Part shown: piece after piece, positions 1 through 4,200 of the stretch
Layout: every line of letters starts with the position of its first letter
How positions within the stretch are numbered: position 1 is the stretch's first letter
IMG/VR virus record: IMGVR_UViG_2541047928_000001
Coordinates: 1-4,200 of that record
DNA: 4,200 nucleotides
Source of the DNA: a virus
Lineage: Duplodnaviria > Heunggongvirae > Uroviricota > Caudoviricetes
Direction: 5' to 3' (one strand)
Program-made: the position numbers and the translations under genes
The notes under the pieces: model-generated
Told to the model about the DNA's origin: nothing
Seen by the model: only the letters and a program-made list of their open reading frames with translations
Databases searched by the model: none

Positions 1-265
1 GCTTGTGAATTTGTATCGTCATGCCGCTTTGAGTGGTGACTACAACGACAGAACCAGGCTGAAGACTGTTAAGATTGAATGCTTCGTAAAACGAATCCAA
101 TGCCAGTGCTTTTTTATTCTTTCTGTTCCACCAACGCCATCCCTTGCTACAGGCTACACTGACAATCCACTGTCCACTCCTGTAAGCCATATAAAACCAG
201 ATGAGCAAAACCTGAAGGAAGGCTATCCAGTCAATAATCGTATATTTCGCGAAGGAGTCCATCAC
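1..265 (-). CDS. Partial CDS (N-terminal part only, continues past window start): small predicted membrane protein, MMDSFAKYTIIDWIAFLQVLLIWFYMAYRSGQWIVSVACSKGWRWWNRKNKKALALDSFYEAFNLNSLQPGSVVVVTTQSGMTIQIHK...
   Basis: Hand translation of the minus strand. ATG at 265-263 (second ATG at 262-260) overlaps the stop of the upstream gene at 262-264 (ATGA). A perfect SD AGGAGGT lies 4-7 nt upstream. This frame has no stop codon down to position 1. A roughly 20-residue hydrophobic stretch is followed by a W/K/R-rich segment. Absent from the ORF track, presumably because no stop lies inside the window. Confidence 0.5.
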   Translation of the reverse strand, partial: MMDSFAKYTIIDWIAFLQVLLIWFYMAYRSGQWIVSVACSKGWRWWNRKNKKALALDSFYEAFNLNSLQPGSVVVVTTQSGMTIQIHK

Positions 266-756
266 TTCACCTCCTGCGGCGGTTCCGGTAGCGGCATCCA
301 GTGGGTTACACCGCCAATTGGCTCATCGTCGTCGTACTCCAATGCTGCTATATAGAACCCGTCACGACGAGAATAAGAAATCCCTGACATTACAATGCCA
401 TCAGAAACAACAATAATGTCACCCGTTTCTTCCGGCATTCGATCACTACAGCTTATCCAACCATCCGGAGTTACCGGCACTGGCTTGGCGGTATAAAGCG
501 GTGTTATATCTGCCCGAAAATTACATGCTTTATGCAGCCGCACCCACCGTTCGACTTCTGCTTTGTCAGAATACATACCAGTGAACGTGTTATATTCACG
601 GTCAATTTGCGTGAAGGTTACCTTCCACGCCACCGGCTCTGCCTCAAGCGATGCCAGTGCAATCCGTGCCAGTTCCATTTGTTCGCCACGGGTAAGCCCG
701 TTTTCAAGCGGGTATTTAATGAACAATTCGATACGTTCTTTAGTGATAGTGCTCAT
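262..756 (-). CDS. DUF551-like phage protein (164 aa), function unknown
   Basis: Track ORF 262..798 trimmed to the internal ATG at 756-754, which has a strong SD (AAAGGAGAG, 5-nt spacer) and sits 1 nt after the stop of the upstream gene. The ATG at 798 has no SD and would overlap the upstream gene by 40 nt. The C-terminal half (GWISCSDRMPEE ... VTHWMPLPEPP) resembles the DUF551 motif as I recall it; not search-verified. Confidence 0.65.
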   Translation of the reverse strand: MSTITKERIELFIKYPLENGLTRGEQMELARIALASLEAEPVAWKVTFTQIDREYNTFTGMYSDKAEVERWVRLHKACNFRADITPLYTAKPVPVTPDGWISCSDRMPEETGDIIVVSDGIVMSGISYSRRDGFYIAALEYDDDEPIGGVTHWMPLPEPPQEVK

Positions 757-757
757 A

Positions 758-1402
758 TCACTCTCCTTTGATGCGAATGCCAGCGGCGCGGGAATCATTC
801 CATCGCTTTACTTCTTCACGAATTACGTCAATGCATTCTTTCGAATCCATTAGGTAATCTTCATCAAAAAGACGTTCCTGTTCGTTTTCTATCGCAACAA
901 TGATTGCTTCAACTAACTTTTGTGCCTGAGAACCACTTTCTAACTCTGCAATGCGCTTCTCTGCGGCCTCTGCCCTGCATTGTTCCCGTTGGAACATTTT
1001 GTGGGTGCGGTCGAGCGCCTCAAGTCTGGCTGCTGATGTTTTCTCTTCTGCTTCAAGCTCAACGCGCAGCTTCCCTACCGTTAGCGCAATATCCTCGTTC
1101 TCCTTGTCGCGGGATTTTATGTATTGCTGGTTTCTTTCCCGTTCATCCAGTAGTGCCAGCGCAACATTTGGATTAAAGGCAGCAATAAATTCAGCGTTTG
1201 CGTAAGCCTGAGCATCTGTTTCAACCAGGCAGTTAACATGACATTCTGCAATCACGCCACCGGGTTCTCCTTTCCATTTTTGACAAACAAAAACTCCTGT
1301 TAAATTGCCGTGCTGGTTAACAGATGTATGCCCTACGATGTAGCTTCCTTTAGTTGCTTTCTCTGCCTTTTCACGCAGTGCCTGATAGTTAATCTCGCTC
1401 AC
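758..1402 (-). CDS. ead/Ea22-like family protein (214 aa)
   Basis: Track ORF. GTG start at 1402-1400 overlaps the upstream stop (GTGA); SD GGAGG lies 7 nt upstream. The N-terminus ([19 protein letters not shown]...) and AAFNPNVALALLDE motif resemble ead/Ea22-like proteins of lambdoid prophages. The central region is charged and coiled-coil-like. Confidence 0.7.
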   Translation of the reverse strand: MSEINYQALREKAEKATKGSYIVGHTSVNQHGNLTGVFVCQKWKGEPGGVIAECHVNCLVETDAQAYANAEFIAAFNPNVALALLDERERNQQYIKSRDKENEDIALTVGKLRVELEAEEKTSAARLEALDRTHKMFQREQCRAEAAEKRIAELESGSQAQKLVEAIIVAIENEQERLFDEDYLMDSKECIDVIREEVKRWNDSRAAGIRIKGE

Positions 1403-1623
1403 TCTTCATCCTCCAAGTCGGCAACGGCGTCCATCACATCAGAACCGCGAATAACCTCAAAAGCACGGCAGGCCATTTGAAATACCAGTTGCTCTTGCGG
1501 GTGAGGAGACTCCCAATATTTGAAGCCTGGGCGATGCGTGTACCCCATCATTGAATAAAAATCACCAGCAAGCTTAATCGCGGCATCGACAAGCTCTCTG
1601 TTAGTCATTCTTTTTCCGCTCAC
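1399..1623 (-). CDS. Hypothetical small protein (74 aa as called), acidic C-terminus
   Basis: Track ORF 1399..1644 trimmed to an in-frame GTG at 1623-1621, preceded by SD AAGGAGG (6-nt spacer) and overlapping the upstream stop (GTGA). An alternative ATG at 1608 would give 69 aa. No recognisable family. Confidence 0.5.
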
Positions 1624-1787
1624 TGGTTGCCTCCTTTGCGCCACATCGCATTCAGATATTTGTTTTGATTCACTGACGGAAAAGAATTTCTCTTAAGCAA
1701 TTCCTCTCTCGATGGCATTGGCTTTACGCGTTGGCGAATAATCATTTCTGCCGGAAGAATGCCGGGATTGTATGCAAGTCCTCTCAT
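1620..1787 (-). CDS. Hypothetical small basic protein (55 aa)
   Basis: Track ORF 1620..1820 trimmed to the ATG at 1787-1785, which has SD GAGGA (7-nt spacer) and starts 10 nt after the upstream stop. The ATG at 1820 lacks an SD and overlaps the upstream gene. Net basic composition. Confidence 0.45.
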
Positions 1788-1797
1788 GGTAAATTCC

Positions 1798-2094
1798 TCA
1801 GTCATTACTGATAGCGCCATAGCGTGAGCGGTAATTACGCAGGCGCGGGTCGATATATTCAGGGAATTTGTCTATTGTCGCTTTTCGCAACGGTCTCATT
1901 GCTGTTTCGTTTGTTCGGTCCTTCTCCTGTTTTAGCGCGAGTTGTATATCGCGTCGGTACATCCGTTCTGCTTTTGTTTCTGGTGTCAGAGCAAGAAACG
2001 CGTCGAAATTGTTTTTGATATTCTCCAGCACCTCCGCCTTGGAGCTACCGGAGCAGTTGCGCGGGTCATCCGCACCATACAGAGGCGCTGGCAT
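1798..2094 (-). CDS. Hypothetical protein (98 aa)
   Basis: Track ORF. ATG at 2094-2092 with a weak SD (AAGG, 8-nt spacer), 23 nt downstream of the preceding stop. Same strand and tight spacing as the rest of the operon. No recognisable family. Confidence 0.55.
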
Positions 2095-2117
2095 AATGGG
2101 AGCCTTATTTTCAGTAA

Positions 2118-2705
2118 TCAGAAAGCAGGGTAATCGTTCTGGCTGTAACCATAATCATCTGCATGATTCTGGCTTACGTTTTTAGAGCGATTGTCTTTAT
2201 CTTTGAGGCTGGCAACCATGTCGGCGATAGTTTCTGGTTGCTTGCCTTCTGCCTTTTCTTTAAGGGTTTGACCTGTTTGTGCAATAAACGGGATGCGTAT
2301 TTCCATCTGGTAGCTGTCTGCGCCAGTCTTTTTGTTTGTGGTTAATACTTTCTGGAGCACTAACCCGATTTTCTTTCCATGAAATTCAGGTGCAACAAAT
2401 TTACTGGCGGAAACCATATGCTGCGTTAATTGTCCAATCCCGGCACACCCCATCATGGCGTGAACGACATTTGCGCCAAATTTGTTTTCCGTTCCGTCAT
2501 TTTTCTGAACACAAACGCTAAGATACTGGATTTTACGTCCGTCGTCGGATTCTCCAGAAAACTCAATAAATTTGGCTCCTTTTTCTGATTTCTTTAGTTC
2601 TGCTTCAGTAATGGTAATGATATGGGCGCCAGTTTCGTTAATAAAACCACCTTGCCCTGCGGTCAGTGCTGCTTCTTCGTTATAAGTAAAAATCACGTTG
2701 CTCAT
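2118..2705 (-). CDS. Putative ssDNA-binding partner of the adjacent ATPase (195 aa); possibly T7 gp2.5-like rather than a canonical SSB
   Basis: Track ORF. Its ATG overlaps the ATPase stop (ATGA), indicating translational coupling. The C-terminus ...ADDYGYSQNDYPAF is an acidic/aromatic tail ending in Phe, reminiscent of SSB and gp2.5 C-terminal tips. The N-terminus MSNVIFT loosely resembles T7 gp2.5 (MAKKIFT). There is no canonical SSB OB-fold signature. The functional call is an inference. Confidence 0.55.
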   Translation of the reverse strand: MSNVIFTYNEEAALTAGQGGFINETGAHIITITEAELKKSEKGAKFIEFSGESDDGRKIQYLSVCVQKNDGTENKFGANVVHAMMGCAGIGQLTQHMVSASKFVAPEFHGKKIGLVLQKVLTTNKKTGADSYQMEIRIPFIAQTGQTLKEKAEGKQPETIADMVASLKDKDNRSKNVSQNHADDYGYSQNDYPAF

Positions 2706-3382
2706 GCGGCGTTTTCCTTAATTTGATGAACATTATTGATGCCGTAGTAATCACAAACAGTGGCATCGACGAAAGAGAGATCGTTATCAATCTCATTGGA
2801 ATCAAACATTCCTATTGGGGATTTAACAGTGTCTGCACCGTTGTTTTTCGTGGTGAAAAAGAACTGGTCATCGCGGGTAAGGGTGCGAAGAACTATAGTA
2901 AACATGCCTTCGACAGTGATTTTCTCGTCCAGCATTTTGCCGATAGTCTTCATTTTCACACGCCCCATAGGGGTTTCTTCGGTGTGTGCGAGAAAATAGA
3001 CTCTCAGGTCATCAGGTGCATCCTGTGCAGCCTTAATCACCTCCCATGCGTGGCGGCCTATCTCAGTGAATTTATCAAACGATTTTTCTTCTGAGCGGCG
3101 CATAAACTCATTGCTCATCACATACTGGAAGTCATCAACAATAACGATTCTTTTCCCGTATTCGTGAGCACGCTTAATTACGGCAACTATTACGTCCCAT
3201 TTGTCAGTGGTAACTACGGTTCCTTTTTTTGCTCTGGCATCCCATGCCAGCCAGTCTTTTGATTTAAATGGAAGCGGCTTGCCTATTGGTTTTATAAGTA
3301 TTGCTTCCTCTGGATTGATATTTCTCATGCTGGTTGATTTTCCGGTGCCAGATTCACCGAGTATTAATGTCGCAGTTCCCAT
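2702..3382 (-). CDS. P-loop ATPase, probably Sak4-like (AAA_24 / RecA-like core) phage recombination protein (226 aa)
   Basis: Track ORF. Walker A GESGTGKST at residues 9-17 and a Walker B-like hhhhDD motif (RIVIVDD). Size and N-terminal P-loop fit the small RecA-like Sak4 family. It sits where lambdoid phages carry their recombination module, directly after kil. SD GAGG with a 6-nt spacer. Confidence 0.7.
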   Translation of the reverse strand: MGTATLILGESGTGKSTSMRNINPEEAILIKPIGKPLPFKSKDWLAWDARAKKGTVVTTDKWDVIVAVIKRAHEYGKRIVIVDDFQYVMSNEFMRRSEEKSFDKFTEIGRHAWEVIKAAQDAPDDLRVYFLAHTEETPMGRVKMKTIGKMLDEKITVEGMFTIVLRTLTRDDQFFFTTKNNGADTVKSPIGMFDSNEIDNDLSFVDATVCDYYGINNVHQIKENAA

Positions 3383-3390
3383 AATTTGCC

Positions 3391-3579
3391 TCAGAATGGT
3401 AATTCGGATGGGGAGGAAAGAAACTCACGCTCATTCATGCGCTCTCTTTGTGCCTGCCATAAGCAAAGTTGTTTCTTTGATTTATCTCCCGCTTTACGCC
3501 AGTAACGAGCCTCAGCAATGTGATATTCTCTTTTTAATCGACTTAACTCTGGAGTTTTCGCCAGTTCTACCGGAATCAT
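3391..3579 (-). CDS. Hypothetical small basic protein (62 aa)
   Basis: Track ORF 3391..3591 trimmed to the ATG at 3579-3577, which has SD GGAGGT (5-nt spacer) and overlaps the kil stop (ATGA). Lys/Arg-rich. No recognisable family. Confidence 0.5.
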   Translation of the reverse strand: MIPVELAKTPELSRLKREYHIAEARYWRKAGDKSKKQLCLWQAQRERMNEREFLSSPSELPF

Positions 3580-3689
3580 TTTGACCTCCATTTTCTGTAG
3601 GCTTCGACGGCCTCACGAAACATCTTTTCATCGCCAATAAAAGTGGCGATAGTGAATTTAGTCTGGATAGCCATAAGTGTTTGATCCAT
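3576..3689 (-). CDS. kil: Kil-like host cell-division inhibitor (37 aa as called)
   Basis: Internal ATG at 3689-3687 of track ORF 3576..3815, with SD AGGAG (8-nt spacer). The product MDQTLMAIQTKFTIATFIGDEKMFREAVEAYRKWRSK matches my recollection of the lambda Kil N-terminus. It starts 32 nt inside the cIII 3' end, the same overlap I recall for lambda. The upstream part of the track ORF is an artefact of the overlapping cIII frame. Confidence 0.7.
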   Translation of the reverse strand: MDQTLMAIQTKFTIATFIGDEKMFREAVEAYRKWRSK

Positions 3690-3822
3690 TTTTTGGGACT
3701 CCTGGCTGATTAAGTATGTCGATAAGGCGTTTCCATCCGTCACGTAATTTACGGGTGATTCGTTCAAGTAAAGATTCGGAAGGGCAGCCAGCAACAGGCC
3801 ACCCTGCAATGGCATATTGCAT
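3658..3822 (-). CDS. cIII: CIII, FtsH/HflB protease inhibitor that stabilises CII (54 aa)
   Basis: Not in the ORF track (54 aa). Hand translation from ATG 3822-3820 to TAA 3660-3658 gives MQYAIAGWPVAGCPSESLLERITRKLRDGWKRLIDILNQPGVPKNGSNTYGYPD, which matches lambda CIII as I recall it. SD AAGGAG at 3834-3829 with a 6-nt spacer. Confidence 0.85.
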   Translation of the reverse strand: MQYAIAGWPVAGCPSESLLERITRKLRDGWKRLIDILNQPGVPKNGSNTYGYPD

Positions 3823-3840
3823 GGTGTGCTCCTTATTTAT

Positions 3841-3871
3841 ACATAACGAAAAACGCCTCGAGTGAAGCGTT
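3841..3871 (-). terminator. Candidate intrinsic terminator or regulatory hairpin between the 97-aa ORF and cIII
   Basis: Minus-strand RNA: AACGCUUC, loop ACUC, GAGGCGUU (8 bp including one G-U pair), followed by UUUCGUU. It lies just upstream of the cIII SD. Likely read through under antitermination if this is a pL-type operon. Confidence 0.35.
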
Positions 3872-3894
3872 ATTGGTATGCGGTAACGCCGCGC

Positions 3895-4188
3895 TCAGGC
3901 GGCTTTGATAGTCATATCATCTGAATCAAATATTCCTGATGTATCGATATCGGTAATTCTTATTCCTTCGCTACCATCCATTGGAGGCCATCCTTCCTGA
4001 CCATTTCCATCATTCCAGTCGAACTCACACACAACACCATATGCATTTAAGTCGCTTGAAATTGCTATAAGCAGAGCATGTTGCGCCAGCATGATTAATA
4101 CAGCATTTAATACAGAGCCGTGTTTATTGAGTCGGTATTCAGAGTCTGACCAGAAATTATTAATCTGGTGAAGTTTTTCCTCTGTCAT
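3895..4188 (-). CDS. Hypothetical acidic protein (97 aa)
   Basis: Track ORF. Its ATG at 4188-4186 overlaps the TAA of an upstream gene that ends at 4188-4190 (TAATG). The composition is strongly acidic (about 16 D/E against 5 K/R), with a D-rich C-terminal region. No recognisable family. Confidence 0.6.
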   Translation of the reverse strand: MTEEKLHQINNFWSDSEYRLNKHGSVLNAVLIMLAQHALLIAISSDLNAYGVVCEFDWNDGNGQEGWPPMDGSEGIRITDIDTSGIFDSDDMTIKAA

Positions 4189-4200
4189 TACGTCATGGTC

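Follow-up and report, generated by a model that had tools for sequence, protein, structure and literature searches.

At positions 2118-3382 of the window, the whole 4,200-nucleotide stretch that was analysed, sak4 and ssb almost certainly form the center of a homologous-recombination ('Rec') module of the HK620 type, carried in the early-left operon of a mosaic, lambdoid E. coli phage or prophage. The unit is the complete four-gene HK620 module hkaM-sak4-ssb-abc2, of which the flagged span holds the two central genes. This type of module is already known: it was predicted in 2010, characterized by biochemistry and genetics in 2018 and catalogued in 2025. A preliminary description of the DNA had proposed that a Sak4-like ATPase and its coupled partner replace the lambda Red system as a two-gene pair. 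Both genes are what they were named, but the unit has four genes and the arrangement had been published before.

Gene layout of the early-left operon

Every substantial entry in the ORF list of the window lies on the minus strand, and kil and cIII mark the window as the early-left (pL) operon of a lambdoid phage. The features, in the order of transcription, are as follows.

3895-4188, minus strand: Ea10-like DUF2528 gene (Pfam and PHROGs profile searches)
3658-3822, minus strand: cIII (PF02061 Lambda_CIII, E 1.5e-30)
about 3576-3689 (long ORF to 3815), minus strand: kil (gene order as in HK620, HK629 and the CE10 prophage)
3391-3591, minus strand: hkaM-like 66-aa ORF (phrog_1723, E 2e-33; 61/62 against HK620 HkaM)
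2702-3382, minus strand: sak4 (hkaL homologue), 226 aa, RecA-core-only ATPase with a putative ssDNA-annealing role taken from the HK620 homologue
2118-2705, minus strand: ssb (hkaK homologue; 'SSB-2'; NCBI name DUF669), 195 aa, phage SSB, cognate partner of Sak4
2121-2138, minus strand: codons of the last six SSB residues, NDYPAF (NDYPPF in HK620)
1798-2094, minus strand: abc2 (anti-RecBCD protein 2), 98-aa ORF, last gene of the module (PF11043, E 1.5e-35)
after abc2, minus strand, in this order: DUF2737 gene, 81-aa ORF, Ead/Ea22-like gene, DUF551 gene (Pfam and PHROGs)

The pair is thus flanked by kil/cIII (3576-3822) on one side and abc2 on the other, which is the recombination slot of the lambdoid early-left operon and the place that the preliminary description had given it.

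The region around cIII carries some further features. A cIII RNA thermoregulator (Rfam RF01804; 3777-3835, minus strand; 88.5 bits with a gathering score of 50, E 2e-21) spans the start of cIII. Between the Ea10-like gene and cIII there is a terminator-like hairpin (3852-3871, minus strand), with an 8-bp stem followed by a T run on the coding strand, at the position where HK620 annotates tL2A and tL2B; readthrough of this hairpin would need N antitermination. Mechanical ORF calling gives kil as 79 aa (3576-3815), in another frame and overlapping nearly all of cIII. Kil is annotated as a short protein of 37 aa, from an internal Met (about 3576-3689), in HK620 and by PGAP, and in its long form in HK629.

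The module opens with the hkaM-like ORF, which measures 66 aa from its first ATG; the HK620 annotation begins at Met5 and gives 62 aa, 61 of them identical (98%). Its TGA stop overlaps the GAGG Shine-Dalgarno sequence of sak4. HkaM was described as an orphan with function unknown, in a slot formerly called 'arf' by analogy with P22 (Hutinet et al., 2018, PMC5928155). Both phrog_1723 and RefSeq label the protein 'recombinase', a name that nothing in Pfam, NCBIfam or PADLOC backed and that is probably a carried-over annotation. NCBIfam returned no meaningful match for any of the four module proteins.

The last gene bears on the nuclease. The preliminary description had seen no exonuclease gene, and indeed the ten main ORFs of the window gave no match to an exonuclease family in Pfam or PHROGs; what can now be added is that this absence is explained by abc2, directly downstream of the flagged span, because its product would redirect host RecBCD. 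The encoded protein matches PF11043 over residues 1-98 and phrog_656 (E 5e-45), and it matches the solved structure of P22 Abc2 (8b1t) with E 3.7e-32. Abc2 binds RecC and alters RecBCD (PMC5928155; PMC12315714), and so the Rec modules of P22 and HK620 encode no nuclease (PMC12315714). By analogy with the work on P22, Abc2 would be expected to play the same role in the window module. A nuclease hidden among the small ORFs was also considered as the answer to the missing exonuclease; no support for it was found, and abc2 accounts for the absence.

The window Abc2 shares just 61% identity with its counterparts in HK620 and HK629, and protein identity falls sharply from ssb to abc2. Immediately upstream of abc2, over 2095-2200, the 3′ end of ssb and the spacer between the two genes differ from HK620 (L002) and HK629 (L001) by the one tail base only. 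The module has probably exchanged its abc2 allele.

The Sak4 ATPase and its SSB partner

The N-terminal Walker A and hhhhDD Walker B reported for the 226-aa ORF were located: GESGTGKS occupies residues 9-16 (3335-3358, minus strand) and IVIVDD residues 79-84 (3131-3148, minus strand). Residues G9, S11, G12, G14, K15, D83 and D84 are invariant in an alignment of 35 sequences of the Sak4 family. Among the profiles, phrog_2872, 'Sak4-like ssDNA annealing protein', covers residues 1-220 of the 226 with E 1.2e-107, and Pfam AAA_24 scores 29.8 bits, just over its gathering score of 27. The protein differs from HK620 HkaL/Sak4 at two positions only, D43E and I190M (224/226 identical). Given this difference of 2 residues in 226 from the HK620 protein, the window Sak4 would be an ATP-dependent ssDNA-binding and strand-annealing protein.

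Since Pfam was silent on the SSB and the preliminary description had turned on fold and family, we predicted the structures of both proteins from family alignments. The ATPase was predicted to adopt a RecA/Rad51-core fold without extra N- or C-terminal domains, and fold comparison of the model ranked a solved Sak4 structure first, with RAD51 paralogues, RecA and RadB next. The Sak4 of a staphylococcal phage (ORF016; PDB 8rc5, in complex with SaPI2 Stl; PMC11846896) shares 14% sequence identity with that of the window. Searches of PDB sequences with Sak4 and with SSB gave no significant match, and the relatives were recovered by fold comparison only. If the 226-aa protein were some other P-loop NTPase, such as a kinase, a Zot-like, an ABC-like or an abortive-infection/defence protein, its SSB-like neighbour would be there by coincidence; with no kinase-specific match for the ATPase, this explanation is close to refuted and we leave it next to no probability. 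The defence-ATPase version was tried separately and rejected: PADLOC gave a match of 22 bits to the P-loop only (residues 1-23), together with a weak match to PDC-S19 (E 0.0015, residues 20-86).

An ssb gene follows sak4 directly, with a 4-nt overlap, and about 80% of sak4 genes have an adjacent ssb gene (PMC5928155). On the minus strand the junction reads ...AAGGAAAACGCCGCATGAGC, where the TGA stop of sak4 and the ATG of ssb share the ATGA at 2702-2705, and an AAGGA Shine-Dalgarno sequence lies 9 nt upstream of the ssb ATG, inside sak4. The same 4-nt overlap is annotated in HK620 and HK629. Furthermore, tblastn placed the start of ssb on the third base of the final sak4 codon, as in the window, in all 62 related IMG/VR viral contigs that carry the four module genes. 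The ATGA link drawn by the preliminary description is therefore there as an overlap, and from it we infer that the two genes are translationally coupled.

The 195-aa protein matches phrog_743, 'single strand DNA binding protein' (E 7.4e-66), is identical to HK620 HkaK/SSB-HK620 at 191 of its 195 residues, and was predicted to have an OB-type nucleic-acid-binding fold. Profile searches and structure prediction, both proposed in the preliminary description, hence agree with its naming of the two proteins: phrog_2872, AAA_24 and a RecA-core fold for the ATPase, phrog_743 and an OB fold for its partner, on which Pfam stayed silent. We found neither an ATPase of another P-loop family nor a partner without a nucleic-acid-binding fold, and the pair is 99.1% and 97.9% identical, respectively, to the experimentally tested Sak4 and SSB of HK620.

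The silence of Pfam deserves comment. Hutinet et al. assigned the SSB-HK620 family to DUF669 (PMC5928155), but a Pfam-A hmmscan with E up to 10 gave no family, DUF669 included, for either the window SSB or HK620 HkaK (L002, 4481-5068, minus strand). Because HK620 HkaK fails in the same way, the missing match is due to the model or the search filters and not to the window allele. NCBI names the cluster relatives of the SSB 'DUF669 domain-containing protein', and PGAP calls copies that are 98.7% identical either by this name or 'hypothetical protein', a mixed naming that suggests a borderline DUF669 model. Among solved structures, PrgE of plasmid pCF10 (PDB 8s4s; PMC11137577), an atypical OB-fold SSB, is 13% identical to the window SSB; PrgE comes from a conjugative plasmid and has no known recombinase partner, and the fold match is a moderate one that does not establish family membership. 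The HK620 SSB has been termed a 'distant homolog of SSB' in one paper (PMC5928155), and its weak likeness to classical SSB may account for the disagreement over it in the literature.

What the pair would do can be drawn from the experiments on HK620. There, Sak4 binds ssDNA and anneals complementary strands with ATP only (Hutinet et al., 2018, PMC5928155). Expression of sak4 alone raised oligonucleotide recombineering about 15-fold and that of sak4 with ssb about 210-fold, while an SSB lacking its last six residues (NDYPPF) lost about 10-fold of the stimulation and Sak4 no longer bound SSB-covered ssDNA; in the same assay, abc2 with sak4 did no better than sak4 (PMC5928155). In the mechanism that we propose, the phage SSB, with its atypical OB fold, would coat ssDNA and leave its C-terminal tail exposed, the tail would recruit Sak4, a P-loop ATPase consisting of the RecA core only, onto the SSB-covered DNA, and Sak4 would then anneal complementary strands in an ATP-dependent manner. 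Abc2 would bind host RecBCD and have the host enzyme make the recombinogenic ends, replacing lambda Exo and the RecBCD inhibitor Gam, and Sak4 with SSB would functionally hold the place of lambda Bet or P22 Erf.

Spread of the module and variation of the SSB tail

The 1,265-bp pair (2118-3382) occurs with 100% DNA identity in E. coli O7:K1 CE10 (NC_017646), in a prophage whose integrase gene lies beside torS, and in AR_0017. In these two genomes the similarity extends over positions 743-3881 of the window at 99.7% identity, while neither end of the window (1-640 or 3882-4200) has a match there; in CE10, the PGAP labels of the two genes are no more specific than 'ATP-binding protein' and 'hypothetical protein'. 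Of 5,426 complete E. coli genomes, 179 (about 3%) hold at least 80% of the pair, and 66 phage records carry it at 95-99% identity, including HK629, JEP4 and many Stx1a- and Stx2a-converting phages. Of the 73 IMG/VR contigs with the 3′ end of ssb in common with the window, 62 have all four module genes. Neither the complete E. coli genomes nor the phage records contain the 4.2-kb window as a whole, the best coverage being 77% among genomes and 65% among phages, because the window is a mosaic. Its Ea10-like DUF2528 and DUF551 genes come from other lambdoid lineages.

Relatives of the two genes are also found in other company. SSB-2 copies with 83-87% identity occur in 62 Stx/933W-like phage records, for example NC_019442 (TL-2011c), NC_049918 (ArgO145) and KU298437 (phiON-2011), and in the records shown they adjoin an annotated exonuclease instead of sak4. 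In TL-2011c, SSB-2 is paired with a different type of annealase (PMC12315714). In a few contigs, three IMG/VR loci and LC645439 (Stx2_16002), an SSB with 98% identity is found with a second, divergent type of Sak4 (about 51% identical); in the IMG/VR loci, 621 nt separate this sak4 from ssb with no overlap, and another gene may lie between the two.

The main task of the pair in vivo could alternatively be replication, either recombination-dependent or rolling-circle, with SSB serving the replisome and Sak4 restarting or priming forks. Lambdoid Rec modules have been implicated in the theta-to-sigma switch of lambda (PMC12315714). Near-identical SSB-2 genes stand beside other recombinases and exonucleases in Stx phages, so SSB is not exclusive to Sak4, and SSB-HK620 is reported to stimulate strand exchange by RecA in vitro (PMC5928155). 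The direct experiments on HK620, however, show annealing and recombineering (PMC5928155), and a replicative role concerns the biological purpose only and is compatible with the annealing mechanism. We consider it unlikely as the main job of the pair, though worth keeping in mind, and retain recombination by annealing as the preferred reading.

The SSB-like C-terminal tail noted in the preliminary description is present. The 195-aa protein ends ...DDYGYSQNDYPAF, with NDYPAF as its last six residues, and residues 177-195 have pLDDT below 50 in the predicted structure, as in a disordered tail. The tail of HK620 SSB has been likened to that of E. coli SSB, DDDIPF (PMC5928155). With respect to HK620, the window tail has Ala in place of the penultimate Pro (Pro194Ala), through a single base change from CCT to GCT, and keeps the terminal Phe. 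Across the 73 related IMG/VR contigs, 66 tails read NDYPPF, five NDYPAF (loci L006, L023, L034, L059 and L066) and two NDYPSF (L027 and L044). In an alignment of 38 members of the SSB family the terminal Phe is found in more than 90%, and the penultimate residue varies (P, D, Q or A, with endings such as FSAF). We had considered the PAF tail as the mark of a unique or broken allele and dropped the idea, as five of the 73 contigs have this tail and several residues are tolerated at the penultimate position in the family. In the mosaic of the window, the PAF allele sits beside the divergent abc2 allele.

These data bear on whether the genes, although correctly named, include a weakened allele, in which the Pro-to-Ala change impairs recruitment of Sak4 or of host partners and the prophage copy is a decaying module. 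The penultimate proline of E. coli SSB is the site of ssb-113 (P176S), a mutation with a defect in partner binding, which counts in favor of such weakening. So does the fact that the window departs from HK620 inside an essential hexapeptide, with an allele that is in the minority (5 of 73, against 66 with PPF); binding of Sak4 to SSB-covered DNA and most of the stimulation depend on these six residues (PMC5928155). Nevertheless, the four ORFs of the module are all intact, two independent complete genomes preserve the identical DNA, five viral contigs share the PAF tail, and it is the terminal Phe, not the naturally variable penultimate residue, that the family conserves. A weakened allele of this kind is, in our judgment, very improbable. 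The Pro-to-Ala change is probably neutral, as far as the alignments can tell, and the window SSB with its NDYPAF tail would act as the HK620 SSB does, by binding ssDNA and stimulating Sak4 through the tail. That Pro194Ala is more than neutral, a recurrent minority allele that retunes the choice of tail partners between Sak4 and host SSB-interacting proteins, seems to us quite improbable; if it were true, natural tail alleles would offer a simple handle on how a RecA-fold annealase is chosen by an SSB tail.

Comparison with known recombination modules

The closest characterized relative is the module of HK620 (NC_002730; hkaM-hkaL(sak4)-hkaK(ssb)-hkaJ(abc2); PMC5928155), in which gene order, the lengths of 226 and 195 aa and the 4-nt overlap are all as in the window, and which likewise lies downstream of kil and cIII. 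The differences are the tail, NDYPPF in HK620 against NDYPAF in the window, and abc2, with its 61% identity. Left of about 1640 the window matches HK620 only in patches, which marks it as a mosaic, and its gene upstream of cIII is the lambda Ea10-like DUF2528 gene. In RefSeq, the HK620 and HK629 genes are already called 'Sak4-like ssDNA annealing protein' and 'single strand DNA binding protein'. A survey of 325 lambdoid phages published in 2025 distinguished 13 types of Rec module (PMC12315714); HK620 serves there as a well-studied reference, with Sak4 as the strand-annealing protein and HkaK as 'SSB-2' (PMC12315714).

The practical use of the present analysis is in annotation: where PGAP gives such genes of E. 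coli the labels 'ATP-binding protein' and 'hypothetical protein' or 'DUF669', the names sak4 and cognate ssb can be assigned with confidence, and the lack of an exonuclease gene should be interpreted with the neighboring abc2 in view. Being common in E. coli and carried by many Stx1a and Stx2a phages, the pair bears on recombination in Shiga-toxin phages.

Finally, lambda Red (gam-bet-exo) and the arf-erf-abc1-abc2 genes of P22 occupy the same early-left slot and carry out the same task, annealing recombination together with control of RecBCD. No Rad52-like Bet/RecT, lambda-type exonuclease or Gam was found by Pfam and PHROGs among the ten main ORFs of the window, which shares abc2 with P22. 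The annealases themselves belong to different folds: lambda Bet and P22 Erf are Rad52-like, whereas that of the window is a RecA-fold ATPase that would need ATP and a dedicated SSB.
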